DNA of 55,420 nucleotides. Source: Planctomycetota bacterium (GTDB lineage: Bacteria > Planctomycetota > UBA1135 > UBA2386). Positions 15,708 through 53,665 of the stretch are shown piece after piece; the first letter of the stretch is position 1; every line of letters starts with the position of its first letter. Position numbers and translations under genes: made by a program. The notes under the pieces are model-generated. The model made no database searches. It saw only the letters and a program-made list of their open reading frames with translations, and was not told where the DNA came from. The stretch is from NCBI GenBank assembly GCA_016794485.1, contig JAEUHV010000096.1, positions 1 to 55,420 on the forward strand, in the 5' to 3' direction.

Positions 15708-17426
15708 ATGAAGCTCCTCTCGTCACTCGCCCCTGCGATGTTGTGCGCCGTTGCGGTCGCGCAGTCGCCGTTCGTCTACAACCCGGTTGCACCCGTCGGC
15801 TACTACGGCTGGAACTCGCCGCCTCCGATCACGACCGTGATGATGAACCTCACGGTCACGAACCAGGTGACCCTGCAAGCGATCGCGACGCCGCTGCTGT
15901 CGCCGGTCGGCCAGCAAGGCACGCTCGAGATCTACCTGACGAATCCGGGCATCACGACGTACGTCGGCAACGAGTTGATCGCGGCGAACTGGTCGCCGGC
16001 GGCCTCGGGCCAGATCATCGGCAAGGGCACCACCGGCACGCTGGCCGGTCTGGAAGCGACCTCGTGCCAGGCAGTCCTCGGTTCGGGCCTCACCTTGAAC
16101 CCCGGCTCGTACGGCATCGCGTTCCGCTACGTCGGTGTCACCCCGCTGCTGGCCGCCGTCGGTGTGCAGCAGACCATCGCGAACGCGGACCTGTCGATGG
16201 TCGGCGGCGCGCTGCAATACACCCCGTGGGGCGCGCTGAGCGGCGCTCCGACCGCGGCCGGCTACAACTCGTGGGCCTGGCGCGGCCAGTTCATCTACCA
16301 GCCCGGCGTGTTCCCGCACGCGTGCGCCGAGTCGTCGCTCTACGGCGCCGGCTGCTACAAGGTGTCCGGCTCCTGCTACCAGGAGTGGACCGACAGCACC
16401 CCGGGTGGCGCGGCTCCCGCGGCGGCCACGGCGCTGAACACGCGCCAGCTGACCTGGGTCTACACCGGTGCTGGCTACACCATGATTCCCGGCACGGGCG
16501 CCTACCTCGCCCCGAGCGGCACGGCCGTGTCGCTGCCGGCCACCGACGATGGTGAAGCCGCCATCACGCTGACCACGCCGTTCCCGCACCTCACCGGCGC
16601 CGCGGCGCAGCTGTTCGTGCACTCGAACGGCTATGTGTCGCTCGGCACCAACAACACGCTCAACAACGGCAACCTGAACTACGTTCCGGAGCCGAACGGC
16701 CTGCTGACCGCGACCAACACGGCGTGGTGGTGCTGGCACGACTACAACCCGACCGAGGCCGGCAGCGGCCTGATCGTCTGGGAAGAGATCGGCGGCATCG
16801 TCTACATCACGTGGAACGGCGTCGAGAGCTACCCGACGACCGCCGTCAACCCGAGCACGATGCAGTTCCAGTTCGACACGTCGACCGGCAACGTCACCTG
16901 CATCTACCAGTCGATGACCAACATCGGCGGCTCCGGCTTCCTGCAGGGCGACGACACCATCGTCGGCTACTCGCCGGGTGGCGATTCGCCGGACGCCGGC
17001 CCGTTCGACATCACCACGCTGACGTCGATCAACCTGCCGGCCGCGGAAGCGTTCCCGCTGCAGCTCAACATGACGGCGCGCCCGATCATCGGCACGACCG
17101 TGAACCTCGACACGACGCGTGAGACCGGCCTGAGCCTCGGCGTCAACTTCGTCAGCGTCGTGCAGATCCCGGCCCCGGGCTTCGACCTGGGCATCCTGGG
17201 CATGCCCGGCTGCGCGGCCCTCGTCGACATCAACGCCGGTGTCGGCAACGTCATCTCGAACCTGGGTCTCCCGGGCCTGAGCATGTCGGTCGCGTTCCCG
17301 CTGCCGAACAACCCGGCCTTCGCCGGCCTGACGATCCACAGCCAGTCGGTGTGGCTCGACCCGGCCGCCAACGCGTTCGGCGCGCTGGTCTCGAACGGCC
17401 TGACGATGGTCCTCGGCAACTTCTGA
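15708..17426 (+). CDS. Secreted protein with a NIDO-like central domain and the shared C-terminal module
   Basis: The ATG is at 15708 (MKLLSSLAPAMLCAVAVA|Q). The central region reads FVHSNGYVSLG...WWCWHDYNP...GLIVWEEIGGIVYITWNGVESY...STMQFQFDTSTGNVTCIY and resembles the nidogen (NIDO) pattern. The C-terminal roughly 125 aa are shared with four other proteins in the window. Confidence 0.7.
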   Translation: MKLLSSLAPAMLCAVAVAQSPFVYNPVAPVGYYGWNSPPPITTVMMNLTVTNQVTLQAIATPLLSPVGQQGTLEIYLTNPGITTYVGNELIAANWSPAASGQIIGKGTTGTLAGLEATSCQAVLGSGLTLNPGSYGIAFRYVGVTPLLAAVGVQQTIANADLSMVGGALQYTPWGALSGAPTAAGYNSWAWRGQFIYQPGVFPHACAESSLYGAGCYKVSGSCYQEWTDSTPGGAAPAAATALNTRQLTWVYTGAGYTMIPGTGAYLAPSGTAVSLPATDDGEAAITLTTPFPHLTGAAAQLFVHSNGYVSLGTNNTLNNGNLNYVPEPNGLLTATNTAWWCWHDYNPTEAGSGLIVWEEIGGIVYITWNGVESYPTTAVNPSTMQFQFDTSTGNVTCIYQSMTNIGGSGFLQGDDTIVGYSPGGDSPDAGPFDITTLTSINLPAAEAFPLQLNMTARPIIGTTVNLDTTRETGLSLGVNFVSVVQIPAPGFDLGILGMPGCAALVDINAGVGNVISNLGLPGLSMSVAFPLPNNPAFAGLTIHSQSVWLDPAANAFGALVSNGLTMVLGNF

Positions 17427-17456
17427 TCGAGGTCCTCGCTCCCCCGAGCGAACGTG

Positions 17457-22969: not shown

Positions 22970-25408
22970 ATGCAAGCACGTATGCGCTGGCTCACCTTCG
23001 TCGCCTTCCTGTTCGCCCTGATCTCGCCGCTCGCGGCGCAGGACGGAACACTGACCCTGACCGCTGCGTTCGAGCCCGCCACCGCCAAGCCCGGCGACAA
23101 GGTCGTGCTGGTGCTGTCGTGCGACGTCACCGAAGGCTGGCATGCCTACGGCACGCTCGAGAAGACCAACCTCCCGGTCGGGCTCGCCCCCGAAAACGTC
23201 AAGACCGCCGGGCTCGAGCTCGATGGTGCGGCGCAGGTGCCGCCGGGCATGCGCAAGATGGTCGGCTCGCTGGCGACGTTCCCGCTGCCGAACCAGTTCA
23301 GGGTCAAGCAGCCGATGACGGTGCCGGCCGGCATGGCCGCCGGCGAGATCACCGTCACCGGCGACCTCGACTACAACATCTGCAACGAACACGGCTGCCT
23401 GCCGCCGGACAAGGTCGCGTTCAGCGCAAAGCTCGTCGTCGCCGCCGCGGCCGGTGAACAGCCGCCGATGCCGACGACGACCAAGCCCGGCCTGGAGATC
23501 GCGCCCGGCGACAAGGTCACGATCGCGGCGAAGTTCGATCCGGCGACCGCGCGCGCCGGCGAAATCGCGAAGCTGGTGCTCACGGTCACCGTGCACGACC
23601 ACGAATGGCACGCGTACGGCTCGCTCGAGACGGAGCAGTTGCCGGTGGCGTTGCCGCCCGACAATGTCGACGCAGGTCCGCTCGAACGCGTCGGCGACGC
23701 CGACGTGCCGCCCGGCGAACCGGTGCAGAAGGGTGGCAAGACGACCCATCCGCTGCCGCCCGTGTTCGAGGTGACGCAGGTGTTCCGCGTTCCCAGCGGC
23801 ACGAAGCCCGGCACCATCGACGTGTCCGGCGCGCTCGCCTACCAGATCTGCAATGCGAACGTGTGCGAGTCACCAGCGCAGCTCGACTTCGAGGCCAAGC
23901 TCGCCGTCGAAGCCGGTGAGCCGCGCGCCGATCGCCTCGGCACGGCGGTAGCACCACCGAAGACCGTCGAGAAGAAGCCCGCCGACCCAAAGCAACCGGC
24001 GCAGAATCCGTCGACGAACGGCGCCGAAACCAAGGAGCCGGAGAACCCGTACCTCAACTGGTGGGTGCTCATCGTCGCGTGCATCGGCGGCGCGTTCTTC
24101 GCCCTGGCGATGCCGTGCACCTACCCGATGATCCCGATCACGTTCAGCTTCTTCACGAAGCAGGCGGAGAAGCGCGGCGGCAACGTGATGAGCCTGGCGC
24201 TCACCTACGGCGCTGGCATCGTCGTGATGTTCGTACTGGTCGGTGTGCTGCTGGCGACGGCGATCCAGGACATTGCCAGCCACTGGCTCACGAACGGGGT
24301 CATCGGCGTCGTCTTCCTGCTGTTCTCGTTCTCGCTGTTCGGCTGGATCACGCTGCAACCGCCGCAGTTCGTGCAGAACCTGGCGACCAAGGCGAGCACG
24401 ACCGGTGGCTACCTCGGCGTGTTCTTCATGGGCGCGACGTTGGTGATCACGTCGTTCACGTGCACGGCCCCGATCGTCGGCGCCATCCTGCCCGGCATCG
24501 CCGAACTCGGCTACGCCCGCGTCGCGGTGGGCATGGGCGTGTTCGGTTTCACGATGGCGGCCCCGTTCGTGGCCCTGTCGCTGATGCCGACCAAGGTGAA
24601 GGCGCTGCCGCGCTCCGGCGAATGGATGGAGACCCTGAAGGTCTCGCTCGGCTTCCTCGAACTCGCGGCGACGCTGAAGTTCGTATCGAACGTCGACCTC
24701 GCGCTCGACTGGCAGGCGATGCCGCGCGAGCTGTTCCTGCTGCTGATCGTCGCGATCTTCCTGATGTGGGCCGCGTACCTGTTCGGCATCCTGCGCAAGG
24801 CCGGGACCGCCAACGAAGGCGTCGGCAACGGCCGCATGGCGACCGGCATCACGGTGGTGCTCGCCGCGACCTACCTGCTGTTCGGCGCGATGGGCTACAA
24901 GCTCGACTACTACATGACGGCGTTCGCGCCGCCCTACTCGGCGCCGATGGTGGCGACGCAGTCGCACGCCAGTGGCGCGTCCGAGAAGAACCCGACCACG
25001 CACACGATCGTCAAGGACGACGGCGACCGCGCCCTGGAGGTCGCCAAGGCCGAAGGCAAACTGGTCCTCTACAACTTCACCGGCTTTGTTTGAATCAACT
25101 GCCGCGCGATGGAAGACGACGTCTTCCTGCGTCCGGCGGTCGCCGGAACGATGAAGAAGGACTTCGTGGAGGCTCGCCTGCACGTCGACCTGCAGAAGCA
25201 CCTGACCAAGGAACAGTTCGCCCGCAACAAGGAGCTGCAGAAGCAGTTCACCAAGAGCCGCGCGATGCCGACCTTCGTGGTGGTGGATCCGCAAACCGGC
25301 AAGAAGCTCGGTGAGGCGCAGCCCGAAGGACTGACGCCAGGTACGCAGACCGAGAACTGGGGCAAGTTCCTCGGGCGCATGATCGAAGCCGCCGGCCGCA
25401 AGCCGTGA
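22970..25408 (+). CDS. DsbD-family thiol:disulfide interchange protein, predicted selenoprotein (TGA 25091..25093 decoded as Sec)
   Basis: Track ORFs 22931..25093 and 25109..25408 are in the same frame and are separated only by the TGA. Two N-terminal DsbD-alpha-like domains carry GWHAYG...ICNEHGC and EWHAYG...ICNANVC. The TM core carries the two DsbD cysteines (MPCTYPMIP and FTCTAPIVG). The thioredoxin domain reads GKLVLYNFTGFV-U-INCRAMEDDVFLRPAV...MPTFVVVD. This aligns with E. coli DsbD [29 protein letters not shown]...LPTILFFD. The start could be the GTG at 22931, the ATG at 22970 or the ATG at 22982. Confidence 0.75.
25101..25137 (+). promoter_or_regulatory. Candidate bacterial SECIS stem-loop
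   Basis: The upper stem is a perfect 7 bp, GGAAGAC-GAC-GTCTTCC (25111..25127). The lower stem pairs GCCGCGCG (25101..25108) with CGTCCGGC (25030-style numbering corrected: 25130..25137) across a 2x2 internal loop. The apical loop starts 24 nt after the UGA and contains a G. Confidence 0.5.
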
Positions 25409-35710: not shown

Positions 35711-37414
35711 ATGCGCATCTCCACCCTGCTCGCCTGCGCCGCCCTCGCCGCAGCGCTCCCCGCCCAGAAGGTCGCCGAAGTCGAACCGAACGACACCGCC
35801 GCAACGGCCATGCCGATCACGGCCGGCACGCAAATCGTCGCCAGCTACGCGACGACCGCGGACGAGGACTGGTTCACGTTCACGCTGGCAGCCCCCGGCC
35901 AGGTGCACCTGCACACGGTGGCGAACGGCACGCTGGCGCTCGGCTTGTCGCGCGACAACCGCATCGCGTTCTACGACGCCACCGGCACGACGCGCCTGGC
36001 GTGGAACGACGGCGCCGTCGGCACGATGGCCGATTGCGGCGTCACGCTGCCGGCCGGCACCTACACCGCCCGAGTCAACCTGAAGAGCGGCACCGCGGTC
36101 GCCTACGACCTCGACTTCTACGTGCTGCCGCCGAACCCGATCGACACGGTGGAAGCCGCGGAGCCGAACGGCGCCACCGGCACGCCGTCGCCGTTCACGC
36201 TCGGCGACACGCTCGAGGGCGAGCTGGTCGCCGCCGTTCCCGCCGACGAGGACTACTGGTCGTTCACGCTGTCCGGCCGCGGCATCGTGCTCGCCGCGAC
36301 CTACGACGACGGTGGCGTGCCGCAGTGCGACAACATGGCGCTGCGGTTCCACTCCGGCGGCCCGGGTGCGTGGACCGCGCTCGGCGCCTCGGATGCGACC
36401 AACTCGGCGAGCCACCGCATCACCACGCTGGCGCACCCGGGCATGCTGCTGGCGGGCACCTACGCGATCGCGGTGAAGGGCGGCACGACCGCTGCCGGCA
36501 CGCCGCCGTGGGACCTGACCAAGCTCGGCAAGTACTCGCTGCGCACGGCCCTGATCGACATGCCGGGAACGGCCGCGGCACCGGAAGCCGCCGAGCCGAA
36601 CAACTCGACGGCGACGCCCGCGGGCACGATCGTGCTCGGCGACGACGTCACCGGGAACTCCACCGGGAGCCTCGACGAGGACTGGTACGCGTTCGCGGTC
36701 GGCGGTCCGACCACGATCGGCGCCATGGCCGAAGGCACGGGTGCTTCGCCGCTCGCCGGCTCCGGACTGAAGCTCTACGACGCGGTCGGCACCCTGGTCG
36801 GTTCGGCGTCGGGCGGCTCGACCACGCACGCGCGGCTCGTCTTCACGATCGAGCGACCGGGCATCTACTACCTGTCGATCAACGGCCCGACCACCCTGGT
36901 CACCGGCGACTACACGCTGCACACCGGCGGCACGACGCCGCTCTACGTCAGCGCGACCACACGCGTCGAACCGGCGTCGACCAACGCCTGCATCGGCAGC
37001 AACGGCCTGCGGCCGCTGCTCGGCACGATGAGCGGCGAGACCGCGACGTTCAACTCGACGTTCGTCACGCGCGTCGAACGCACCTATCCGTCGTCGTTCG
37101 TCGTCGGCATGGTCGGCACGTCGAACACGATCGGCCTCGGCTCGATCCCGCTGCCGTTCCTGATCGGCTACGGCGGCCTCGACTCGCTGAACCAGCCGAC
37201 GCCGTGTTACGTGCGCGTCGATCCGCTGATCATGATCGCGGTACTGACCGATGCCGCCGGCAACGGGGAGTACTGGTACGTCTTCCCGTACACGCCGTCC
37301 GCACTCGGGCTGAAGGTCTACCAGCAGGCGCTGTGTTTCGATCCGCCGATCAACTCGCTCGGGTTGACCGTGTCGAACGACGGCAGCTACGTCCTCGGCG
37401 ACCGCCCGTTCTGA
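35711..37414 (+). CDS. Secreted protein with three tandem PPC-like (pre-peptidase C-terminal) domains plus the shared C-terminal module
   Basis: The ATG at 35711 lies in-frame within track ORF 34496..37414 (MRISTLLACAALAAALPA|Q). The three repeats start EVEPNDTAATA...DEDWFTF, AAEPNGATGTP...DEDYWSF and AAEPNNSTATP...DEDWYAF. Confidence 0.8.
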   Translation: MRISTLLACAALAAALPAQKVAEVEPNDTAATAMPITAGTQIVASYATTADEDWFTFTLAAPGQVHLHTVANGTLALGLSRDNRIAFYDATGTTRLAWNDGAVGTMADCGVTLPAGTYTARVNLKSGTAVAYDLDFYVLPPNPIDTVEAAEPNGATGTPSPFTLGDTLEGELVAAVPADEDYWSFTLSGRGIVLAATYDDGGVPQCDNMALRFHSGGPGAWTALGASDATNSASHRITTLAHPGMLLAGTYAIAVKGGTTAAGTPPWDLTKLGKYSLRTALIDMPGTAAAPEAAEPNNSTATPAGTIVLGDDVTGNSTGSLDEDWYAFAVGGPTTIGAMAEGTGASPLAGSGLKLYDAVGTLVGSASGGSTTHARLVFTIERPGIYYLSINGPTTLVTGDYTLHTGGTTPLYVSATTRVEPASTNACIGSNGLRPLLGTMSGETATFNSTFVTRVERTYPSSFVVGMVGTSNTIGLGSIPLPFLIGYGGLDSLNQPTPCYVRVDPLIMIAVLTDAAGNGEYWYVFPYTPSALGLKVYQQALCFDPPINSLGLTVSNDGSYVLGDRPF

Positions 37415-38054: not shown

Positions 38055-39422
38055 TCACCGCCGCGTGGCGTCGGCCTCGGCGCGTTCCTTCTGCGCCGCG
38101 CGCAGCAGCGGCACCACGTCGATGCCGAGCGCCAGCAGGCCGTCCTGCGCGGCGATGACCTCGAGCACCTGGGTGCGTTGGGCCGCCGGCAACTTCGCCA
38201 GCGCGTCGATGCTCGCGCGCCAGGTTTCGACCGTCTGCAGCCCGCGGCCGACGCGGGTGACGCCCGGGGCCGAGCCCACTCGCCAGGTGAGGATGTCGAC
38301 CAGCCGCTGCCGCTGCGCGTCCGTGCCGGCGATCGCCGCCACGATGTAGTCGGGCACCGACAACACGAGGTCGCGATCGCATTCCCGCTCCACCGGCAGC
38401 AGCAGCAGCCGGAGCCGGACCAGATCGACCGGGTCCTGCTCGATGCGGCGCCGGAAGAACTGGTTGACGTGGTCGTTCGCCAGCAGCTCGCGGTAGTTCG
38501 CGTGCAGGTCCGCCGGGGCGTGGCGGAACACGCCGAACAAGACCTCGAGCGACAGGTCCAGCCACGCCTGGTCGGCCTTGCCCGGCGTCGCCTCGCAGGC
38601 CGACGCGAGAAACCAGCCACACAGCACCCGCGACGTGTCGTCGTCGACGTGCGGCGCCGCCCGCGCGAGGCAACTGCGCACGAACCACGAATAGGCCCCG
38701 TAGCGCGGGTCCTTGGCGTCGGGGGCCGCAGGTCCGGGCGGCGGCACGAGCCGATCGATGAGCCCGCGGTCGCCGGTCCCGACCGCGATCGCGATCAGGC
38801 GCGGCTCGCGCGCGAAGTGGGCCATCGGGCTCCATCCCTGGCGGTAGGGCGGCACCGTCAGCGGTTCGATCCAGTGCAACGTCAGCACGTCCTTCGGCCA
38901 GATCGCCACGGCGCGGTCGACGAGCAGCTTCCGCGTCACCGCCGGCATCGGCCCCTTCGTGCATTTCGCCAGCACGGGCAGCGCCATGCTGACGACGACT
39001 TCGTCCGCGTGGTCGACCAGGGAGAGCAACGGCGGCACCACCCGCTCCGGATGCCCGACGGGATTCACCTCGAGCAACGCGGCCAGGGCCCGGCGGGTGA
39101 AGAACGGCGAGCCCGTCGCCGCCACCGCCGCGACCATGTCGAACCCGACCGCCGTGCTGGCCGCGGCCCGGAAGTGGTCGACCGCGACGCGATCGTCGTC
39201 GGTGAACGCAAACGGGTTCGCAGCGTCCGCATCCACGACCGGCACGGCGATCGCTCGGGAGATGTGCTGGGCGGCGATGCGCCGTTCCGTCGACGCGGCG
39301 TCACCGACACGCACCACGGGCGCCGGCTCCTTCTGGGCGCGGGCGGCGCCGGCCACGACGGCGATCGCGAGCACGGGCAGTCCCCAGCGGCAGGTCGGCA
39401 TGCACGGTTCATAGCAGGTCAT
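38055..39422 (-). CDS. Secreted hypothetical protein
   Basis: The 455-aa product has the signal peptide WGLPVLAIAVVAGAARA|Q. The start may be the internal ATG at 39401 (MPTCRWG...). Confidence 0.6.
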   Translation of the reverse strand: MTCYEPCMPTCRWGLPVLAIAVVAGAARAQKEPAPVVRVGDAASTERRIAAQHISRAIAVPVVDADAANPFAFTDDDRVAVDHFRAAASTAVGFDMVAAVAATGSPFFTRRALAALLEVNPVGHPERVVPPLLSLVDHADEVVVSMALPVLAKCTKGPMPAVTRKLLVDRAVAIWPKDVLTLHWIEPLTVPPYRQGWSPMAHFAREPRLIAIAVGTGDRGLIDRLVPPPGPAAPDAKDPRYGAYSWFVRSCLARAAPHVDDDTSRVLCGWFLASACEATPGKADQAWLDLSLEVLFGVFRHAPADLHANYRELLANDHVNQFFRRRIEQDPVDLVRLRLLLLPVERECDRDLVLSVPDYIVAAIAGTDAQRQRLVDILTWRVGSAPGVTRVGRGLQTVETWRASIDALAKLPAAQRTQVLEVIAAQDGLLALGIDVVPLLRAAQKERAEADATRR

Positions 39423-39532: not shown

Positions 39533-40393
39533 ATGCACCGACTCGCCTGCCTCGCGGCACTGTTCGCCAGCCTCGCCCCGGCCGTGGCCCAGGGCCGCGT
39601 CGAGCGGTTCTTGCGCTCCGAGTCGAAGAACGGCCCGCTGGTCGTCGCCCATCGTGGCGCCAGCGAAACGGCACCCGAGAACACCCTCGCGGCGCTGCGG
39701 GCCGCGGTCGCCGCCAAGGCGCACGTGGTGGAGTTCGACGTGTACCAGACCAAGGACGGCGCCTGGGTGCTGCTGCACGACGCGACCTGCGACCGCACCA
39801 CCGATGCGGTGGCGAAACTCGGCCACAAGGACGTGCGCGTCGAGCAGCTGACCCTCGCCGAAGTGAAGTCGCTCGACGCCGGAGCCTGGAAGGGCAAGGC
39901 CTTCGTCGGCGAACGCATCCCGACACTGGCGGAAGCTCTCGCCGTGGTGCGGCCGGCGATCGCGATGGTGGAACGCAAGGGTGGCGACCCGAAGGCGCTC
40001 GCGGCCGAGCTGTCGCGGCTCGACGCGAACGATCACGTGCTGGTGCAGGCGTTCGATTGGGAGTGGCTCGCGGCGTTCCACGCCGCCGCCCCGGACGTGC
40101 TGCTCGGCGCGCTCGGCGGCAAGGAGTGCACGCCCGAACGGGTGCAGCAGGCGCTGGCGACCGGCGCGCGGCTCGTGCACTGGGACCACAAGACGCTCGA
40201 CCTCGACGTCGCGGCGAAGGTGCGCGCCGGCGGCAACCTGCTGTGCGTCTACACCGTCGATCCTGACACGCTGCTGCTCGGGGCGGCGGCGCTCGGCTGC
40301 GACCTCATCACGACCAACCGGCCCGAACGGCTCGTCGCGCTGCGCGACCGCGGCGAGCTCGCGCGCGTTCGCCCGCCGGTGAAGGGAAACTAG
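39533..40393 (+). CDS. Glycerophosphodiester phosphodiesterase (GDPD family), secreted
   Basis: The signal peptide is LFASLAPAVA|Q. The GDPD motifs VVAHRGASETAPENTLAA, EFDVYQTKDG, LHDATCDRTT and GERIPTL are present. Confidence 0.9.
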   Translation: MHRLACLAALFASLAPAVAQGRVERFLRSESKNGPLVVAHRGASETAPENTLAALRAAVAAKAHVVEFDVYQTKDGAWVLLHDATCDRTTDAVAKLGHKDVRVEQLTLAEVKSLDAGAWKGKAFVGERIPTLAEALAVVRPAIAMVERKGGDPKALAAELSRLDANDHVLVQAFDWEWLAAFHAAAPDVLLGALGGKECTPERVQQALATGARLVHWDHKTLDLDVAAKVRAGGNLLCVYTVDPDTLLLGAAALGCDLITTNRPERLVALRDRGELARVRPPVKGN

Positions 40394-40704: not shown

Positions 40705-42065
40705 CACGACACCTCCACGCGAACCTTGGTCTGCACCGTCGTCTTGTCGAGCAGCGCCGGCCAGTAGCCGACGATGTCGGTCGCCTTCGGGCGACCACCC
40801 GCGAACCCGGTGACGCCGGGCGGGCCGCTCGTGACGAGCGGCACGATCTCCATGCCGAAGCGATCGACCTTGTCCTCGTCGTCGCACTTCACGCCGAGGC
40901 GCAGCACGACTTCGGGCGGGTTCGCCGATTCGCTGATGCCGGCGTGGCAGACGCCGGCACCGACGATCTCGACCAGCTTCTGGTGCTCTTCGAACGTGCA
41001 GCCGTCGAGGGCGAGGCGCCCCCAGACGATGTCGGCGCACAACTTCGCCTTCGCCACCGCGTCCGGGCCGCTGACGGTGAGCTGGCCGGTCGTCTTGAAG
41101 CCGTTCAGGTAGCTGAGCGAGACCTTGTAGGTCGGGGTCGCCGGGCCGCCCTTGATGCCGGACAGGCGCACGCGGTCCTTGCCGACTTCCTCGATCTTCG
41201 CCGAGGTGAAGTCCGCCGTGCAGTCGGGACCGAGGTAACGCTTGGGATCGCCCATCTCGTAGAGCAGCTGGCTCACCACCGTGTTGCGGTTGATCAGGCC
41301 GCCGGTGCCGTCGTGCTTGGTGACGACGAACGACCCGTCGGGCGAGGCTTCGATGATCGGGTAGCCGATGCGCACGAAGTCCTGCACTTCGCGCCAGCCG
41401 GTGTAGTTGCCGCCGGTGCACTGGGCGCCGCACTCGGCGATGTGGCCCGCCATCGTGCCGGCCGCGAGCTTGTCCCATTCGCCGGCCTTCCAGCCGAACT
41501 CGTGGATCATCGGGCCGGCGACCAGTGCTGGGTCGGTGAGGCGCCCGCCGATCACGATCTGCGCACCGGCGGCGAGGCACTCGGCAACCGCGAACGCGCC
41601 GATGTAGACGTTGGCGCTCAGCAGCTTGCCCTGCACGGCAGCGAGGGCACGGCCGTCGTCCATGTTCTTCAGGTCGTGGCCCTTGGCGAGCAGATCGGGA
41701 ACGCGCGCGAGGATGTCGTCGCCCTCGATGATGCCGACCTTGAGGCCCTTGATGCCCTTCTTGCGCGCGAGGTCGAGCACGGCGTCGAGGCAGGCCTGCG
41801 GATTCACGCCGCCGGCGTTGGCGACCACCTTGATGCCCTTCTTCGCGATGTCGGGCAGCGTGCGGTCGAGCATCGCGACGAAGTCGGTGGCGTAGCCGGC
41901 CTTCGGGTTCCGCCCCTTGAGCTTCTGCATGATGCTCATGGTGACCTCCGCGAGGTAGTCGAGGGCGAGGTAGTCGAGCGGGCCTTCGCGTACCAGACGA
42001 ACCGGGCCGAGGATGGAGTCGCCCCAGAAGCCCTGGCCGTAACCGATGAGAACCTTGTCGCGCAT
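40704..42065 (-). CDS. Acyclic terpene utilisation AtuA-family protein (DUF1446)
   Basis: I trimmed the ORF to the ATG at 42065. The product reads MRDKVLIGYGQGFWGDS...LDYLALDYLAEVTMSI...ANAGGVNP...GRLTD...HIAECGAQCTGGN...LLYEMGDP. Confidence 0.8.
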   Translation of the reverse strand: MRDKVLIGYGQGFWGDSILGPVRLVREGPLDYLALDYLAEVTMSIMQKLKGRNPKAGYATDFVAMLDRTLPDIAKKGIKVVANAGGVNPQACLDAVLDLARKKGIKGLKVGIIEGDDILARVPDLLAKGHDLKNMDDGRALAAVQGKLLSANVYIGAFAVAECLAAGAQIVIGGRLTDPALVAGPMIHEFGWKAGEWDKLAAGTMAGHIAECGAQCTGGNYTGWREVQDFVRIGYPIIEASPDGSFVVTKHDGTGGLINRNTVVSQLLYEMGDPKRYLGPDCTADFTSAKIEEVGKDRVRLSGIKGGPATPTYKVSLSYLNGFKTTGQLTVSGPDAVAKAKLCADIVWGRLALDGCTFEEHQKLVEIVGAGVCHAGISESANPPEVVLRLGVKCDDEDKVDRFGMEIVPLVTSGPPGVTGFAGGRPKATDIVGYWPALLDKTTVQTKVRVEVS

Positions 42066-42249
42066 GGTGAAGGGCGAACAGGATAGCGGGGCATCGCCCC
42101 AGGCCCGAGTGGCTTCCCGTCGGACCGTCGCACGGCGCTCCACGGGACCAGGTACGGCGCTGACCCTTGGCTTTCCGCCGACTTCGTGCGGAAATCCAAG
42201 GCAATTCCCGGCACGCAAGCGCCGAAATCCAACCCAATCCGTGTCTGCC

Positions 42250-42960
42250 ATGCGCGCACCACTCTCCGCGTTCCTGTTCGCGTTGGCCTTGCCGATGGCG
42301 GCACCTGCGCAAGCCAAGAGCACCGACACCGCCGGCCCGGCGCAGCGCATCTGGGCATCGATGATGCTGGAGCAGCAGGAGTGCTGGTTCCGGCGCACGG
42401 TCGAACTGCCGAAGGCGGCGACGCGGCTGCGGCTGTGGTTCACCTGCGACAACGAGTGCACGGTGTTCGTCGACGGCGTCGAGGTCGGCAGCAACGACGA
42501 CTGGACGAAGCTCGGCAACGCGCAGCTCGACGGCGAATGGAAGGGCAAGGTGACGATCGCGGTGCACGCGAAGAACACCGGCGGCCCAGGTGCCTTGTCG
42601 CTGTGGCTGTTGTGGGACGACGTCGACGGCGCGCACGAGATGGCCACCGACACCGACTGGCGCGTCACCGCGGTCGCGGAGACCGGCTGGAACACACCGG
42701 GCCACGACGACGCGAAGTGGGAACAGGCGACCGCGAACTTCGACACGACGTTCGGCAAGAACCTCTACAACGGCGAACCGACCGGCGTGCGCGTGTTCAA
42801 CGCGTTGACGAAGCTCGCCGATCCGATCGCGACAGCGCTCGAGCAGCTGCGTCAGGCGCCCGACCGCGCCGCGGCCTTGAAGGCACTCGAGGCGATCGAC
42901 CGCGCGGTGGTCGAGGCGCGCGGCAAGCTGTGGCAGAAGCGAGCCGCGGACCAACGCTGA
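42250..42960 (+). CDS. Secreted protein with a galactose-binding-like (rhamnosidase-N-like) domain
   Basis: The ATG is at 42250 (MRAPLSAFLFALALPMAAPA|Q). The motif CWFRRTVELPKAATRLRLWFTCDNECTVFVDGVEVG is characteristic of such beta-sandwich modules. Confidence 0.6.
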   Translation: MRAPLSAFLFALALPMAAPAQAKSTDTAGPAQRIWASMMLEQQECWFRRTVELPKAATRLRLWFTCDNECTVFVDGVEVGSNDDWTKLGNAQLDGEWKGKVTIAVHAKNTGGPGALSLWLLWDDVDGAHEMATDTDWRVTAVAETGWNTPGHDDAKWEQATANFDTTFGKNLYNGEPTGVRVFNALTKLADPIATALEQLRQAPDRAAALKALEAIDRAVVEARGKLWQKRAADQR

Positions 42961-42964: not shown

Positions 42965-43897
42965 TCACAGCACGAAGCGGTGCGCGTTCGTCGTCACGTA
43001 GAGGCCATTGCGCGCGGTCGACACCAGCGCCCCGCCTTGCACGACGAGCGTGACGCCAGAGAGCCCGGCCGGGGCCGCCATCGACCAGGTCGCGCTCCAG
43101 GCGGCAGTGCTGGGCAAGAGGCCGGCCTGCAGAACGAACAGGTTCGGCGTCCAGAGGTTCGGCAGCAGCTCGAACGGCAGGTTGCCGGAGGTCACCGTGT
43201 CGCCGAGGAACACATAGAGCGAACCGTCGGCGAACCCCACCGGGTAGCGCAACTCGGCGATCATCGCCGCACCCGCGGTCGTCGCGTGCAGTTCGGGGAA
43301 CGCGGTCGGCGTGCTCGCGACGGCCGTGCGCAGCTCGACGTGTTCGCCGGTTCCGGGCAACGGCGACGTCGGCAGCAGCGTGACCACCGCGGCGAAGTCG
43401 CCGTTCGGGTCGACGTTGTCGTTGTAGAGCGAGTCGTGTACGCCGAGGAACAGGAAGGTCGCACCCGCCGGCACCCGGACCATCAGGCTCTCGTCCCACA
43501 GGTTGCGGCTGCAGAAGAAGTCCTGCGGGATGTCCATCGGCAGGTTGCCGACATAGGTGCCGCCGCTCGCAAAGGCTGGCCCCGCCGCGATCGCGGCCGG
43601 CACGCGCGCCTGCACGTTCGACGGCAGCAGCGTGTTGCTGCCGCTGAACACGCCGACGAGGTTGTAGTAGTTGTCCGGCCCGCCATTGATGTGGCGGAAC
43701 GCACCGGTCGTCCCGACCCGCAGGCACGAGCCCGGCGTGATCCCCATGGCGCCGAGGTCGAGCACCAACGGTGACGTGGCGGTGTCGCCATTGGTGCGCA
43801 GGAACGTGGCGCGCGGGTCCAGCGGCAGGGTCCAGGTCTGCGCCACAGCGACGGCGGACAGCAGGGCGGGGGCGAACACACGGACCAGATTGCTCAT
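42965..43897 (-). CDS. Secreted hypothetical protein carrying the shared C-terminal module
   Basis: The 310-aa product has the signal peptide MSNLVRVFAPALLSAVAVA|Q. The terminal strands ...APAGLSGVTLVVQGGALVSTARNGLYVTTNAHRFVL match the family pattern. Confidence 0.7.
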   Translation of the reverse strand: MSNLVRVFAPALLSAVAVAQTWTLPLDPRATFLRTNGDTATSPLVLDLGAMGITPGSCLRVGTTGAFRHINGGPDNYYNLVGVFSGSNTLLPSNVQARVPAAIAAGPAFASGGTYVGNLPMDIPQDFFCSRNLWDESLMVRVPAGATFLFLGVHDSLYNDNVDPNGDFAAVVTLLPTSPLPGTGEHVELRTAVASTPTAFPELHATTAGAAMIAELRYPVGFADGSLYVFLGDTVTSGNLPFELLPNLWTPNLFVLQAGLLPSTAAWSATWSMAAPAGLSGVTLVVQGGALVSTARNGLYVTTNAHRFVL

Positions 43898-46944: not shown

Positions 46945-47454
46945 ATGACGACGCCCGCGTTCGACCTCGGCGCCCTGGTGCGCCGGCACCAGCTCGGACT
47001 GTGGCGCTACGCCAGGGCCCTCGGCGTTCCGGCGGCCGATGCCGAGGACCTGCTGCAGGACACGTTCGTGGTGGCGCTGCGGCGGCTCGACGCCGATCGC
47101 GGCGAGGCCGCGGTGGCGACGTTCCTGCGGCAGACGTGCAAGCACCTGTGGTTGCGGCGGCGGCGCGACCAGAGCCGGCGCGAGCAATTGCTGCTCGAGC
47201 ACGCCGATGCCGTGTGGACGCGCGAGTGCGACGACGACGACGGCGAACGGTGGCAAGCGGCGCTGCGCGCCTGCGTCGGCGGGCTCGACGGCCGCGCGCG
47301 CGAAGTGGTGGAGCGATTCTACGGCGACGGTCTGCCGCGCGACCAAGTCGCCGACCGGCTCGGCATGAAGGAAACCGGCGTGAAGACCCTGCTGCAGCGC
47401 GTGCGCGCGCTGCTGCGCGACTGCATCGAACGGCGACTGCGAGGTGACGTGTGA
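46945..47454 (+). CDS. ECF-type RNA polymerase sigma factor
   Basis: The gene lies in-frame within track ORF 45733..47454, with its ATG at 46945. It carries EDLLQDTFVVALRR, the acidic linker ECDDDDGER and the sigma-4 region QVADRLGMKETGVKTLLQRVRALLR. It is a paralog of the sigma factor at 27452..28015. Confidence 0.9.
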   Translation: MTTPAFDLGALVRRHQLGLWRYARALGVPAADAEDLLQDTFVVALRRLDADRGEAAVATFLRQTCKHLWLRRRRDQSRREQLLLEHADAVWTRECDDDDGERWQAALRACVGGLDGRAREVVERFYGDGLPRDQVADRLGMKETGVKTLLQRVRALLRDCIERRLRGDV

Positions 47455-49871
47455 CCGACGAACGGGACGACGAAGTGTTCGAACGGCGGCTTGCGGCGGC
47501 GTTGCGCGAGGCGCACGGCGAACGCGCGCCCGACGTGACGGCGGCAGTGCTGGCGCGCGTGGCAGCCGGCGAGGTCGTCGACGTGGGCGCGGCAGTGCCG
47601 GTGCGGTCGCGGCTGGCGTGGCTGGCGGCGGCGGCCGTGTTCCTGCTCGGTCTCGCGACCGTGCTCGCGGTGGCGTGGTCGCAGCGTGGTGGCGCTGGTG
47701 GTGGTCCGAACGATGGCGAAGGCGGCGCGCAGGAAGCCCAGCAACCCGAGCAGCCCAAGCTGCCCGAAGTGACCCGCATCGGCGACATCGCGACGTTGCC
47801 GCGCGAACTGAAGGCCGTCGAACTGCGCAATCTCGAAGACGACGCGGTCGCAGCGCTGGTCGTGCGTTGCCCGGATCTCGAGCACCTGCGCGTGTTCGCC
47901 AGCACCGCCTACAAACGGGAAGGGGATCTGCCGGCGCAGTCGATCACCGATGCGGCTCTGCCGCACATCGCGAAGCTGACGCAGCTGCGTCGGCTCGAAC
48001 TGGTCGGCGTCGTGCTCGTGAAGGGTCCTGGCCTGCGGGAACTCGCGGCGTTGCCGCGGCTGGAGAGTCTCGCCATCGAGTTCTTCGACATGGCCGACGA
48101 GGACCTCGCGTTCCTCGAACGCCTCGCGTCGCTGCGCGATCTGTCACTCGTGAACGTCCAGACGATCGGCGACCGCGCCTACGAAATCGTCGGCCGTTGC
48201 GTCGGCCTGCGTGCCTTGACCATCGTGGGTGGACGCGGCCTCGGAACCGACAGCCTGGCGCCTCTCCGTTCCCTGCAGCACCTGGAACGGTTGCAGCTGC
48301 ACGGCATCGGGCAATGGTCGCGCGGTGTCGCCGATCCGGAAACCGCCGCACGCTTCGGCCTCGGGATGGACTTCTCCGGCAGGCGCCAAGGTACGGGAGT
48401 CACCGTCGACAAACTCGGCGGAGGCTGGCCGAAGTTGCAGGAACTGGCACTCGAGGCGGCCCTCGACCTGGAGTCGGATGTCGGGGCGTTCGTGCGCGAC
48501 CACGGCCGCGGCCTGCGACGCCTGACCCTGCGCGGCTGTCCGAATGTCGACGACACGACCCTCGCCGACGTGCTCACCTCGCCGAACCTGACGGAATTGG
48601 TCCTCGGCAACTGCCCGCGCGTCACCGCGGCCGTGCTGCCGAAACTGGTCGCGGCAAAGAACCTCGCCTGGATCGACTTCGGCGTCACGCCATGGCTCAC
48701 GTTGGCGCATGCCGAGGAGCTGCTGCTCGCCGGCAAGGGCGTGCGCGGCGCGCGCCCCACGGACCCGCAGTTCGAAGCGAACCTGCGCGGGCTGGTCGCC
48801 TTGCATGCCCGCCACCTCGCCGACCGTCGACCGACCCCACAAGTGCGCACGATCGCCGAGATCGAGGCCCTGCCGAAGGCCACGACGCGCATCGAACTGC
48901 GCGGCCTCGGCGACCGTGCCGCGACGCTGCTGGCCCGCTTCCCCGACCTGCACCACGTCGAGTTCATCCGCGACGACGACGACCCGTTCACCGCGGCGGG
49001 ACTGCGGGCGGTCGCGGCGTTGCCCAAGCTCGAACACCTCGAACTGAACAACCTGCCCAACCTGAAGGCGGGTGACCTCGCTTCGCTGCGCCAGGCACGC
49101 TCGCTGCGCAGCCTCGACCTCGCCAGCGTTGCCGTCGACGACGCGGCGCTGCAGGTCCTGCCCGACTTGCCGCTGGACACGCTGGTGCTGGCCGGTGTGC
49201 GCACGTTCGGCGAAGACGGCGCCAGGGCGATCGCCCGCTGCATCGACCTGCGGCGGCTCGAAGTGCTGGGCTGCGATCAACTGTCACGCGACGCAATCGC
49301 GACGTTCGGCGCACTCGACCGGCTCGAAACCCTGGTCCTCCGCGAACTGCCGAAGCTGTCCGACTCGGCCCTGATGGGACTGCAGCACCTGGTGCAGCTG
49401 CGCGCACTCGAAATCGGCCCAGGCTGCTTCACGTCGATGGGCCTGCAGACACTGGCCGACATGAAGCGGCTGGTCGTGCTGCGGCTGTCGGGCAACCGCG
49501 ACGTCGTGACTTCGTGCCTGCTGTACGCACCGACCGGCCTCCAGGCACTGCAGCTCGACGAGTGCCCCGGCATCGGCGACGACGTCGGCACCCTGCTGCG
49601 CGACCGCTTCCCATCGCTGCGTTCGCTCGACCTCGGTGGCAACGCGAAGATCACCGACGCGACCCTCGCCGCGATCCTGCAGAACCCGTCGCTGCAGCGC
49701 CTCGGCCTGCGCGACTGCACCGCACTGACCGCCGCGTCGTTCGCGGCGATCCGCGACGCCCGCTCGCTGCGCGAACTCGACGCGACGCGCGCCCCGTGCC
49801 TCACCGACGCCAGCGCCGCCGAACTGCAGCGCCTGCGGCCGGAGCTGAAGATCACCCGGAAGGTGTGGTGA
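47451..49871 (+). CDS. Anti-sigma-like membrane protein with a large RNI-type leucine-rich-repeat ectodomain
   Basis: The GTG start overlaps the sigma stop (GTGA). The short N-terminus is followed by one TM helix (LAWLAAAAVFLLGLATVLAVAW). About 700 aa of 24-28-residue LRRs follow, for example CPDLEHLRV, LTQLRRLEL, LPRLESLAI, LASLRDLSL, CVGLRALTI, LQHLERLQL ... CTALT. Confidence 0.8.
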   Translation: MTDERDDEVFERRLAAALREAHGERAPDVTAAVLARVAAGEVVDVGAAVPVRSRLAWLAAAAVFLLGLATVLAVAWSQRGGAGGGPNDGEGGAQEAQQPEQPKLPEVTRIGDIATLPRELKAVELRNLEDDAVAALVVRCPDLEHLRVFASTAYKREGDLPAQSITDAALPHIAKLTQLRRLELVGVVLVKGPGLRELAALPRLESLAIEFFDMADEDLAFLERLASLRDLSLVNVQTIGDRAYEIVGRCVGLRALTIVGGRGLGTDSLAPLRSLQHLERLQLHGIGQWSRGVADPETAARFGLGMDFSGRRQGTGVTVDKLGGGWPKLQELALEAALDLESDVGAFVRDHGRGLRRLTLRGCPNVDDTTLADVLTSPNLTELVLGNCPRVTAAVLPKLVAAKNLAWIDFGVTPWLTLAHAEELLLAGKGVRGARPTDPQFEANLRGLVALHARHLADRRPTPQVRTIAEIEALPKATTRIELRGLGDRAATLLARFPDLHHVEFIRDDDDPFTAAGLRAVAALPKLEHLELNNLPNLKAGDLASLRQARSLRSLDLASVAVDDAALQVLPDLPLDTLVLAGVRTFGEDGARAIARCIDLRRLEVLGCDQLSRDAIATFGALDRLETLVLRELPKLSDSALMGLQHLVQLRALEIGPGCFTSMGLQTLADMKRLVVLRLSGNRDVVTSCLLYAPTGLQALQLDECPGIGDDVGTLLRDRFPSLRSLDLGGNAKITDATLAAILQNPSLQRLGLRDCTALTAASFAAIRDARSLRELDATRAPCLTDASAAELQRLRPELKITRKVW

Positions 49872-49874: not shown

Positions 49875-51212
49875 CTACTTGCCGCCGAGCAGCATCGCGC
49901 CGTGGTCGGCGACGATGAAGCCGAACGGATTCGCCGCGAGGTCCAGCGCCGCCCCCTGGCAGTAGATCGTGCCGCCGAGCAACGCCGCCGCGTTCGGGAT
50001 CGCCAGGTTCCACGTCGCGGTGTTGCCGTTGGCGAAGAACGCGTCGACCAGCGCCATGTCGACCTGCAGCGTGCAGCCTGGCATGCCGATCACTGCGAGC
50101 GACGCCGGCAGAGCCCCGAAGGTCGCCGAGAACGTGTCGCTGAGCCCGTAGAGCATCAGCCCGATCGTGTTCGCCGGCACCGGCGCGATGTCGACCGTGA
50201 ACGTCTCGCCGAGCCACGGCCGGTCCGCGCTCGTCAGCACCGGCGCGTTCGGCAACGACCCTGCACAACCCACACCGCTGGTCGCGAACGACGCCCGCAC
50301 CGTCGGCGCATACCGCCACGTCTCCGCGGTAGGCGAACTGCCGAACATCAGCACTTCCTCGCGCACGAAGTCGTACGCCAGGTACGTGTCGCTGCGCGCG
50401 CTCGGCAACGTCGCCGGCGTGCGCTGCAGCCAGGTCGTGCCGTTCCATTCCCATTGGTCCGCGATCGTCGTGCCGCCGACCATCACGATGCGGCCGCGCG
50501 CCGTGTCGGTGACCATCGAGTGGTCGAACCGCGCCGGCGGCACGTTCGACGGCAGCACCTGCTGCCAGGTGGTGCCGGTGAACCGCCAGGTGTCGTTCCC
50601 CTGCTGGTAGCCGCTGAACAGGATCAGGCCGCCGCCGACCGGATCCCACGCCATGTCGGTCGCGCGCCGGCCCGCCGGACTGGACGCGGTGACGATCTGC
50701 GTCCACGCGACCCCGTCCCATTCCCACGTGTCGAACAGGTCGGTGCCGTTGTAGCCACCCCACAGGATCGACGTGCCGCGGCTCGGCAGGTAGGCCATCG
50801 TGTGCGACCGGCGCGGGCCCGGCGTCGTCGCCGGCGTCATCTGCGTCCAGTCCACGCCATCCCATTCCCCCGTGTCGCCGAGATAGCCGCCACCGGCCGG
50901 AATGCCGCCGAACAGCACGAGCTTGCCGCGCGCCTCGTCGTAGCAAAGCGTGTGCGCAACGCGCGCGGGCGGCACGTTCACCGGTGTCGCCTGCGTCCAA
51001 GTGCTGCCGTCCCACAGCCAGGTCTCGTTGTAGCGGACACCCCCGAAGGTGCCGCCGAACAGCACCGTGCGGTCGGTGGGCAGGTGGTAGGCCATCGCAT
51101 GGGCGGAGAATGCGATCGGCGACGCGGCCGGCGACAGCAGCGTCCAGTCGGTCTGGGCCGCGAGCGGGGCGAGGAGGAGAACGGTGGCGAAGAGGGGACG
51201 GGCGATGCGCAT
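49875..51212 (-). CDS. Secreted Kelch-repeat beta-propeller protein carrying the shared C-terminal module
   Basis: I trimmed the ORF to the ATG at 51212 (MRIARPLFATVLLLAPLAA|Q). Six repeats carry patterns such as TVLFGG...ETWLWDGSTWTQ, LVLFGG...GEWDGVDWTQ, ILWGG...WEWDGVAWTQ and so on. Confidence 0.85.
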   Translation of the reverse strand: MRIARPLFATVLLLAPLAAQTDWTLLSPAASPIAFSAHAMAYHLPTDRTVLFGGTFGGVRYNETWLWDGSTWTQATPVNVPPARVAHTLCYDEARGKLVLFGGIPAGGGYLGDTGEWDGVDWTQMTPATTPGPRRSHTMAYLPSRGTSILWGGYNGTDLFDTWEWDGVAWTQIVTASSPAGRRATDMAWDPVGGGLILFSGYQQGNDTWRFTGTTWQQVLPSNVPPARFDHSMVTDTARGRIVMVGGTTIADQWEWNGTTWLQRTPATLPSARSDTYLAYDFVREEVLMFGSSPTAETWRYAPTVRASFATSGVGCAGSLPNAPVLTSADRPWLGETFTVDIAPVPANTIGLMLYGLSDTFSATFGALPASLAVIGMPGCTLQVDMALVDAFFANGNTATWNLAIPNAAALLGGTIYCQGAALDLAANPFGFIVADHGAMLLGGK

Positions 51213-51394
51213 GGTGGTAAGGCCGAACGGCGAGGTCGGGCAGGATAGCCGCGACGGCAAGGCTGGTTCGCCGCGGACTCTGCGGTGGCCGCGCCCCCGA
51301 TGGCAGATTTCACGGCGGCGGCGTGTGTGGATTCGCCGGCGCGCCCGCTGCCGAGGGTGTCGCCCCTGCGGGCGCATCCCTTTCGGACCCACGT

Positions 51395-53665
51395 ATGCGA
51401 ACCCTACTGCTCGTTCCGTTCCTGACGTTGCTGCCAGCGCTCACCGCGCAAGCACCGACGCCGCGCCCTGTTGCAGAGACCTACCCGCCCGCCGAAGAGG
51501 CCGTGGCCAAGGCGCCTGACGACCTCACCCCGACCGAACGCGACGCCCTGGCCCGGAGCCTCGGCGCCCGGCCGCAAAGCCGCGTGCTGTTCGACCAGAC
51601 GCAGGCGGACGGCACCCTGTGGGCGATCGGCACGGCTTGGAAGGCGAGCTTCGACGCCACCGGCTTCACCGCGATTCCGTTCTTCGGCAGCCAGGCGCCG
51701 CGCAACTTCCCGGTCCGCTTCGAGCTGACGCAGGCGACGGTCGGCGGAACGGCATTGCCGCTCGCGGATGGCGTGCCGGCCGTACGGGGCAACCAGGTGC
51801 GCACCGCGCGCGGCGGCTGCACCGAGGTGATCGACCTCGCGCTCGACCAGATGGAGCAGTCGTTCGTGTTCGACGCGCTGCCCAACCGCGGCGCGATCGC
51901 GGTCGACGTGCGCGTCGACACGGAACTCGCCGCGTCGATGCTGGCGAACGGCATCCGCTTCGGCAACGAGTTCGGCCACGTCGACTACCAGAAGGCGGTG
52001 GCCGTCGATGCCGCCGGCCGACGCCTGCCGCTCGCGATCGAGTGGACCGGCAACGGCGTGCACATGGAGATCCCGGCGTCGTTCGTCGAGCAGGCGCAGC
52101 TGCCGCTCGTGCTCGATCCGGTGCTCAACTACTGGTACGGCATCGCGTCCGGCCAAGCCGTGCTGCAGCACGACAGCGACGTGGCGTCGTTCCAGTCGCT
52201 GGGCGGCCGCACGCTGATCGTCTACCAGCGCGACTTCAGCGCGGGGGACACGGACTGCTGGGGTGTCCTGTTCGACGGCAACCTCGGCCTCGTGCAGACC
52301 GACTTCACCATCGACTTCACGAACGCCAACTGGAAGAACGTCGCGGTCGCGGCGCACAACTACAGCCAGAACTTCCTGGTCGTCGCCGAAGTCGAGACCG
52401 TGCTGAGCTGGTTCATCGTCGGCCGCACCGTCGCAGCCAATGCTGTGGTCGGGGCGCAGTTCGACATCGAACGCGACGGTGTCGTCGGCGTGCCGGGCAA
52501 CAGCTTCTCGCCCGACGTCGGCAGCGACCCGTACTACGGGCCGGGCCGCTACACGGTCGTGTTCATGAAGCGGCCGAACATCTTCAGCAACGCGCAGACG
52601 ATCTACTACAAGCAGGTCAACCCCGCGGGCACCCTGGTGACCACGGCGCCCGTGCTCGTCGACACGAACGCCCAGGGCGTCGACCGTCCGTCGATCAGCA
52701 AGTCGTGCGGCCAATCCAACGGCCAGCCTGCCTTCTGGCTGCTCACCTGGCAGCGCACCTGGGTCGGCCTCAGCGGCGACCAGGAAGTCTGGGGTCGTTT
52801 CGTGAACTGGAACGGTGCGATCCAGGGCACCTCGCCGTTCGCCATCGCGTTCACCCCTGCCGAAGAGACCGCGCCGTCGTCCGGCTCGCCGATCGACGTG
52901 AACGGCACGCGCTACTGGCCGATGTGCCACGAGTACGCGACCGCGCTGGGCCAGCCGCGCGACGTCAACGCCAAGCTGCTGAACAGCAGTGGCGGCACGG
53001 TCGCCGGATTCACCGTGAACACGCCGGTGCCGGGTGAGGACGACCGCGAGCCCGAGATCGACTCCGACGGCACGCGCTTCGTCGTCACGCGGACGAACGG
53101 TACCGGCGTCGAAGCGGTCACCGCGGCGTACCTCGCGGCGAGCAACACGTTCCGCGTCGAGGAGCGCACCGCACTGATCACGTCCGGCCTGGACACCTAC
53201 GGTGAGACCAACATCTGCGCCGACTACAGCGGCGGTGGCTCGATGTCGCCGCGCTACTTCCTCTCGTTCAGCGAGCAGTCGTCGAACACGTTCCGGTTGG
53301 AGGTCTTCGGTGGCTGGCTGCCCGGCCAGTTCTTCGTGCCGCAGACGAACCCGGGCGGCGTCACCACGATGGCGGTGACCGGCTCGCCGGTCATCGGCCA
53401 GACGGTCGGCTTCGACGTGCAGCCGGGCCCGCTCGCGGCGGTGCACATCGGCACGCCGAACTACATCCCGTTGAACGCGCTCGGCTGCAACTGCGTGCAG
53501 GGCGTCGACCCCGTCGCGACGTTCCTGTCGCCGTGGTCGTGGACGATCCCGAACAACGTGGTGTTCGTCGGCCTGCAGTTCGCCGCCCAGGGCTTCCACC
53601 TGACCGGCACGCAATGCCTCGGCTTCATCGACCTCAGCCAGTCGGTGAACTTCACGATCCGCTGA
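51395..53665 (+). CDS. Large secreted hypothetical protein carrying the shared C-terminal module
   Basis: I trimmed the ORF to the ATG at 51395 (MRTLLLVPFLTLLPALTA|Q). The product is 756 aa. I recognised no family for the body of the protein. Confidence 0.7.
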   Translation: MRTLLLVPFLTLLPALTAQAPTPRPVAETYPPAEEAVAKAPDDLTPTERDALARSLGARPQSRVLFDQTQADGTLWAIGTAWKASFDATGFTAIPFFGSQAPRNFPVRFELTQATVGGTALPLADGVPAVRGNQVRTARGGCTEVIDLALDQMEQSFVFDALPNRGAIAVDVRVDTELAASMLANGIRFGNEFGHVDYQKAVAVDAAGRRLPLAIEWTGNGVHMEIPASFVEQAQLPLVLDPVLNYWYGIASGQAVLQHDSDVASFQSLGGRTLIVYQRDFSAGDTDCWGVLFDGNLGLVQTDFTIDFTNANWKNVAVAAHNYSQNFLVVAEVETVLSWFIVGRTVAANAVVGAQFDIERDGVVGVPGNSFSPDVGSDPYYGPGRYTVVFMKRPNIFSNAQTIYYKQVNPAGTLVTTAPVLVDTNAQGVDRPSISKSCGQSNGQPAFWLLTWQRTWVGLSGDQEVWGRFVNWNGAIQGTSPFAIAFTPAEETAPSSGSPIDVNGTRYWPMCHEYATALGQPRDVNAKLLNSSGGTVAGFTVNTPVPGEDDREPEIDSDGTRFVVTRTNGTGVEAVTAAYLAASNTFRVEERTALITSGLDTYGETNICADYSGGGSMSPRYFLSFSEQSSNTFRLEVFGGWLPGQFFVPQTNPGGVTTMAVTGSPVIGQTVGFDVQPGPLAAVHIGTPNYIPLNALGCNCVQGVDPVATFLSPWSWTIPNNVVFVGLQFAAQGFHLTGTQCLGFIDLSQSVNFTIR

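Follow-up and report, generated by a model that had tools for sequence, protein, structure and literature searches.

The window analyzed here is a stretch of 55,420 nucleotides of contig JAEUHV010000096.1 (assembly GCA_016794485.1; G+C content 68.7%) from a Planctomycetota bacterium of the UBA2386 lineage. It encodes 5 secreted proteins for which a first-pass annotation, made from the DNA letters alone, had proposed a shared C-terminal module. We refer to these proteins as A (15708-17426, plus strand), B (35711-37414, plus strand), C (42965-43897, minus strand), the Kelch protein D (49875-51212, minus strand), and E (51395-53665, plus strand). All 5 open reading frames (ORFs) were found at these positions, each with a signal peptide at its N-terminus. 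Four of the 5 proteins carry the module, with A, B, and D as strong members and E as a divergent one. It is a new and so far undescribed domain family, about 135-150 residues long and lineage-specific, from high-GC uncultured Planctomycetota.

Membership was assessed by pairwise BLASTP among the 5 proteins and with a profile of 35 sequences (A3; A, B, and D together with 32 trimmed homologues) run over all 436 ORFs from the six-frame translation of the window. BLASTP matched A to D with an E-value of 1.4e-8 across 167 amino acids (aa), A to B with 1e-4, and B to D with 4e-3; neither C nor E had a significant match to any partner. The profile gave E-values of 9e-59 for A, 1e-50 for D, 1e-30 for B, and 2.3e-4 for E, compared to 1.6 for the best noise match and 24 for C. 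The similarity is thus significant, which had been named beforehand as a point on which the proposal could fall. Protein E was additionally aligned to A3 in register by hhalign (probability 90%, E-value 1.7e-6). Taken together, A, B, and D combine a strong A3 match ending at the C-terminus with the cysteine of the G-x-P-G-C motif, E does so weakly but in register, and C does not, so that the 5 copies in 55 kb counted originally come down to the 4 per 55-kb window that the A3 search supports.

The motif blocks quoted in the first-pass annotation occur verbatim in the 4 members. In D, the module comprises the strand SFATS followed by GVGC (aa 308-316), RPWLG (aa 331-335), and GMPGC (Cys380) and continues up to the final residue before the stop codon, while the corresponding sandwich part of A contains RPIIG (aa 458-462) and GMPGC (Cys502). 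The module of B includes NACIGS (aa 425-430) and PTPC (Cys499), and that of E has SPVIG and LGCNC without the N..G..SN motif of the tail. As had been described, the proteins end within a few residues of the module and no transmembrane segment follows: The C-termini (...LGNF, ...LGGK, ...GDRPF, and ...FTIR) come directly after a predicted beta-strand.

For protein C, 3 tests did not establish membership, i.e., the hidden Markov model (HMM) search described above, hhalign of the single sequence against A3 (probability 6%), and a profile-profile comparison of 25 C-family sequences with A3 (probability 26%, E-value 7e-4). The latter aligned 99 C-terminal columns in register, with the invariant cysteine absent, and protein C would be at best a remote, degenerate, Cys-less relative of the module. 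It belongs to a separate and well conserved family of Planctomycetota metagenome-assembled genomes (MAGs) with 79 homologues, nearly all of about 310 aa and with 37-72% identity to C, that have a signal peptide and invariant residues including D-N-x-D-P-N-G-D and R-N-G motifs. Scans of protein C with Pfam and NCBIfam gave no match.

The module of A differs from that of D in its layout. In D-type proteins, a strand ending in [FY]GxGCxGS directly precedes the sandwich. Across 132 members, the distance from [FY]GxGC to the cysteine of G-x-P-G-C is bimodal, with about 60-80 residues in 36 proteins and about 240-300 in 70. The class with the long spacing is the A-type, and in A itself the YGAGC motif (aa 212-216) lies upstream of the NIDO-like domain. 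Both cysteines are invariant in a 20-sequence alignment of A-type proteins (A6; C19 and C305). AlphaFold2 (AF2) modeled aa 198-572 of A as one unit with a predicted local distance difference test score (pLDDT) of 87.6 and a predicted template modeling score (pTM) of 0.80, including a pLDDT of about 90 for the strand before the motif. The NIDO domain as such (PF06119) was detected in 8 of 85 full-length homologues. We infer that the conserved strand ending in [FY]GxGC is the first strand of the module and that the commonest architecture has a NIDO-like domain of about 200 residues inserted between this strand and the remainder of the module. The cysteines of the 2 motifs probably form a putative disulfide staple. 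The start of the A module, placed at around 17040 in the first-pass annotation, is accordingly moved to the YGAGC strand on the other side of the NIDO-like insert (Table 1).

Table 1. Positions of the module, its parts, and the signal peptides in the window.
Feature	Position	Strand	Evidence
Module of D, contiguous type	49875..50291	-	A3 E-value 1e-50; AF2 pLDDT 89.9, pTM 0.80, eight strands
C-terminal sandwich part of A module	16974..17426	+	A3 E-value 9e-59; BLASTP A-D E-value 1.4e-8
YGAGC motif of A (aa 212-216), putative first strand and first Cys	16341..16355	+	Bimodal spacing, invariant Cys, AF2
Module of B, contiguous type with longer loop	36962..37414	+	A3 E-value 1e-30; BLASTP A-B 1e-4, B-D 4e-3
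Divergent module of E	53357..53665	+	A3 E-value 2.3e-4 vs 1.6 for best noise match; hhalign 90%, E-value 1.7e-6
C-terminus of protein C, membership not established	42965..43370	-	A3 E-value 24; hhalign 6% (single sequence), 26% (profile-profile)
Signal peptide of protein A	15708-15770	+	small-x-small-Q ending
Signal peptide of protein B	35711-35770	+	small-x-small-Q ending
Signal peptide of protein C	43838-43897	-	small-x-small-Q ending
Signal peptide of protein D	51153-51212	-	small-x-small-Q ending
Signal peptide of protein E	51395-51451	+	small-x-small-Q ending

The contiguous module is predicted to be an eight-strand immunoglobulin (Ig)-like beta-sandwich, given that an AF2 model of the last 160 residues of D, built with A3, had 8 beta-strands and no helix of at least 4 residues at high overall confidence (mean pLDDT 89.9, pTM 0.80). 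Searches for relatives of this fold support the earlier description of the module as unassigned because no Pfam or NCBIfam model covers it in any of the 5 proteins or the 85 full-length homologues. A sequence-profile search of the PDB returned only noise (best match TssG, E-value 0.22), and Foldseek found nothing at an E-value of 1e-3 or below in the PDB with either of 2 models (best E-value 6.6e-3, highest TM-score 0.43). The top Foldseek matches were GM2 activator, NPC2, and Ig-like receptors or domains (probability 0.9-1.0, E-values 0.007-0.07, TM-scores 0.3-0.43), which indicates that the predicted structure has only a generic sandwich resemblance to them. Neither curated models nor close structural matches placed the module in a named family of Ig-like domains or carbohydrate-binding modules (CBMs), among them PKD, Big, CARDB, FlgD_ig, ML, and the galactose oxidase-like E-set. 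A match to a well-characterized domain, the other outcome that would have spoken against the proposal, was therefore not found by Pfam, NCBIfam, PDB profile, or Foldseek searches. Two candidate likenesses were rejected as evidence, i.e., the one to GM2 activator and NPC2, which both bind lipids (TM-score about 0.33), and an analogy to the C-terminal domain of galactose oxidase (TM-score about 0.15, no match to a Pfam model).

An exhaustive HMMER search with a ten-sequence profile (A1) of 1.84 billion representatives of clusters at 50% identity recovered 9,518 clusters at an E-value of 1e-3 or below and 3,647 at 1e-10 or below, which bears out the large family that had been anticipated from the window, here across metagenomes. 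A search of genome contigs with a narrower alignment that is biased to A-type modules (A2) gave 23 matches among GTDB species-representative genomes, and all 23 are uncultured Planctomycetota MAGs. Fetched loci have a G+C content of 66-74%, and one contig is labeled Planctomycetota_UBA2386. Almost all module proteins are named “hypothetical protein” by NCBI and JGI (one NCBI record reads “PKD domain-containing protein”), and our literature searches retrieved no description of the domain.

The position of the module is strictly terminal. In 147 of 159 matched stretches that we re-analyzed, the profile envelope reaches the last residue of the protein, and it ends within 2 residues of it in the other 12. 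Six-frame analysis of the DNA, which does not depend on gene calls, placed a stop codon 0-2 codons after the module in 30 of 32 cases (25 loci, 218 kb). Where the N..G...SN motif could be located, the chain ends 7-9 residues past it in 135 of 139 proteins. Among the matches listed, 143 of 150 proteins have a single matched stretch and none has an internal one. Genes encoding module proteins stand in tandem as pairs or triplets at 4 of the fetched loci (L002, L003, L010, and L024), which, like the 4 copies in the 55-kb window, reflects a high density of copies.

The passengers of the module are unrelated to each other. Among the 85 full-length members, Pfam partners include Kelch, PKD, and NIDO domains, DUF5122 and Rax2 propellers, Laminin_G_3, an enzyme of the beta-lactamase family, and a C-type lectin, and nearly all full-length module proteins have Sec signal peptides. 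Together with the terminal-position counts and the strands of the AF2 models, this diversity bears out the original characterization of the module as C-terminal, beta-rich, and carried by unrelated cargo. Protein B has PPC upstream of its module with 2 matched stretches (best aa 51-123) where the first-pass annotation had read 3 copies. An FG-GAP protein at locus L026, on a 6.59-Mb contig of a Planctomycetota MAG, carries a divergent, Cys-less copy of the module (E-value 6e-7). The gene of this FG-GAP protein lies beside that of a choice-of-anchor I (PF22494) protein (L026:3973-6375 and L026:6572-7960). In the latter protein, the tail (IPNDTNLIGSTVSAQ...LSNGWRLVLG) is similar to no more than the final 41 module columns, at a probability of 24%, and about 45 extra residues follow. 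With so short and weak a match, we dropped it as evidence for a “choice-of-anchor” role.

The Sec signal peptides of A-E terminate in a small-x-small-Q pattern (AVAQ, LPAQ, LAAQ, LTAQ, and ARAQ), which implies a glutamine at position +1 following cleavage by signal peptidase I. Conservation of this glutamine is 90% or more in a set of 85 module proteins. Of 101 module proteins, 94 have the pattern, as do 68 of 74 C-family proteins, compared to 27% of background windows. Three further exported proteins of the window, encoded at 38055-39422 (minus strand), 39533-40393 (plus strand), and 42046-42960 (plus strand), show the same pattern. It resembles the “Bacteroidetes Q-rule,” which was given as Bacteroidetes-specific in a paper that does not mention Planctomycetes (PMC5837995).

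The module copies of the window are surrounded by housekeeping or regulatory genes with no relation to one another or to secretion. These genes encode an HNH nuclease, a BNR/GDSL esterase, a histidine kinase, a HEAT-repeat protein, DsbD, and an arylsulfotransferase as well as a phosphotransacetylase, GDPD, AtuA, a radical SAM protein, and a leucine-rich-repeat protein. The neighborhoods at L001, L002, L026, and L029 are likewise heterogeneous. Adjoining D, the window encodes an 806-aa protein (47451-49871, plus strand) with an anti-sigma-like N-terminus, one transmembrane segment, and a long leucine-rich-repeat region; the 2 genes are convergent, with stop codons 3 bp apart. The region of about 6865-25090 is syntenic with positions 1251-19437 of L028 (JGI metagenome contig Ga0438299_000269), where the orthologue of A is P0009. 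The shared order is HNH, 2 uncharacterized genes, BNR/GDSL esterase, A, histidine kinase, response regulator, HEAT-repeat protein, and DsbD. No candidate machinery recurs among the neighborhoods: DsbD, near A, is kept in the synteny with L028 but was not seen in the other neighborhoods listed.

Several known systems place a C-terminal element on diverse exported proteins. The closest in kind is the T9SS CTD (C-terminal domain; T9SS, type IX secretion system), which is like the module a strictly C-terminal Ig-like sandwich on Sec-exported, diverse passengers with many paralogues per genome in one lineage. The T9SS CTD has about 70-100 residues and 7 strands, however, while the module has about 135-150 residues, 8 strands, an invariant pair of cysteines, and room for a nested domain of 200 residues. 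In the T9SS, the CTD is removed from the mature protein, and the latter is then joined to anionic LPS. With hmmscan, the type A CTD (TIGR04183/PF18962) gave no match on the modules of the 4 members at an E-value of 1 or below and none to the 85 homologues at 0.01 or below. The type B CTD (TIGR04131/PF13585) matched neither the 5 proteins nor the 85 homologues. A sub-threshold match to TIGR04183 in B (19.6 bits compared to a cut-off of 23; aa 351-395) lies upstream of the module in a region read earlier as PPC-like repeats and probably reflects generic beta-sandwich similarity. No T9SS component (the machinery comprises SprA/Sov, PorV, PorU, and GldKLMN) was found among the Pfam matches of the scanned window proteins and the genes at L001, L002, L026, L028, and L029, and we know of no T9SS in Planctomycetota.

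The PPC domain (PF04151) resembles the module in being a small beta-sandwich that secreted proteins carry C-terminally, and it is thought to aid secretion and then to be removed (Pfam description). PPC occurs in tandem or internally, unlike the module, and its separate detection upstream of the module in B marks the two as distinct. The PEP-CTERM/exosortase, LPXTG/sortase, and MYXO-CTERM systems also involve lineage-specific expansions of C-terminal elements on diverse exported proteins. Their tripartite signals comprise only about 25-35 residues with a motif, a transmembrane helix, and a basic tail, whereas the module is a folded, soluble domain of 135 residues without a transmembrane segment. 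The absence of T9SS CTD, PEP-CTERM, and LPXTG signatures that the first-pass annotation had stated holds up in the Pfam and NCBIfam scans, and no NCBIfam sorting-signal model of any tripartite type matches the module proteins. A further likeness, by description, is to Amuc0953 of Akkermansia muciniphila, whose host also belongs to the Planctomycetes-Verrucomicrobia-Chlamydiae (PVC) group but is a member of the Verrucomicrobiota. This sulfatase is a cell-surface enzyme with a terminal Ig-like domain resembling the T9SS CTD, and a T9SS-like system outside Bacteroidota has been suggested (PMC13524802). The module is thus a new family within the known class of C-terminal beta-sandwiches on diverse exported cargo.

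The combination of terminal position, single copy, fixed chain end, unrelated passengers, Sec signals, lineage restriction, and many paralogues leads us to favor, tentatively and by inference from architecture, that the module may be a lineage-specific domain for surface sorting or retention that is analogous to the T9SS CTD but outside that family. The same architectural signature first revealed the T9SS CTD and the exosortase (PEP-CTERM) and sortase signals. In such a scheme, module proteins would be exported by Sec and processed by signal peptidase I, after which the sandwich would fold in the periplasm and be stapled by the disulfide. A component of the envelope could then recognize the free, length-constrained C-terminal strand together with a conserved face, and this component would bring its cargo to the surface of the cell or keep it there. 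The module would more probably be an anchor that is retained than a tag that is cleaved off, because a whole NIDO-like domain is inserted inside it in the commonest architecture. The location of A's first strand upstream of the NIDO-like insert argues against a simple excisable tail, and the nesting of that domain likewise suggests an anchor that stays in place.

Several observations weigh against a role in sorting or retention. The NIDO-like insertion means that the module is capable of structural scaffolding, a property atypical of a pure export signal. The passengers are mostly adhesin- or lectin-like, and a terminal Ig-like domain in such proteins could simply serve for binding or as a spacer. 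Among the divergent members, some are without the cysteine, as in the FG-GAP protein at L026, or without the tail motif, as in E. Near the module copies of the window, L001, L002, L026, L028, and L029, we found no secretion, sortase-like, or anchoring gene, and the about 330 kb examined yielded no cognate machinery, cleavage site, or evidence of localization.

The lack of machinery in these neighborhoods would fit a ligand-binding domain, CBM-like or resembling a lipid-binding beta-cup, that tethers secreted proteins to a substrate, prey, a polymer, or the cell’s own glycan without any role in transport. The beta-sandwich fold, the lectin- and adhesin-like partners (Kelch, PKD, LamG, and C-type lectin), and the identity of the top Foldseek matches as lipid-binding proteins and Ig-like receptors point in the same direction. 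These structural matches are at noise level, though, and no CBM or ML model of Pfam matches the module. Furthermore, CBMs and Ig domains with binding functions are found at either end of proteins, internally, and in tandem, while the module was terminal in all cases examined, nearly always matched as a single stretch, and set at a fixed distance between conserved motif and chain end. We therefore regard a purely ligand-binding role as unlikely. More improbable still seems a role in structure or folding, i.e., that of a C-terminal cap, stalk, oligomerization unit, or intramolecular chaperone that stabilizes exported beta-rich passengers, as the C-terminal E-set domain of galactose oxidase caps its Kelch propeller: The NIDO-like domain is nested in the module between 2 conserved cysteines, the pair was modeled as one rigid unit, and galactose oxidases are among the weak Foldseek matches, but the latter have a negligible TM-score with no match to the galactose oxidase-like E-set model of Pfam, and a single cap for passengers of unrelated folds that include an alpha/beta enzyme of the beta-lactamase family is unlikely.

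If the module indeed serves surface sorting or retention, a more far-reaching and in our view doubtful possibility is that it is the cargo signal of an unrecognized pathway for outer-membrane translocation or surface attachment in high-GC Planctomycetota and thus an independently arisen analogue of the T9SS CTD in the PVC group. The glutamine at +1 that recalls the Q-rule would then be a second parallel with the export biology of Bacteroidota. To our knowledge, no dedicated cargo-tag system comparable to the T9SS has been recognized in the PVC group, and the placement of proteins at the cell surface of Planctomycetota is poorly understood. Surface display directed by CTDs outside Bacteroidota is a current but unproven idea (PMC13524802). 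With about ten thousand diverse exported proteins marked by the module, a candidate surface proteome becomes available for an uncultured lineage, and the module provides both a profile with which the machinery could be sought through genome-wide co-occurrence and a tag that can be tested for heterologous display. Even if the module should merely bind ligands or serve a structural purpose, its description fills an annotation gap.

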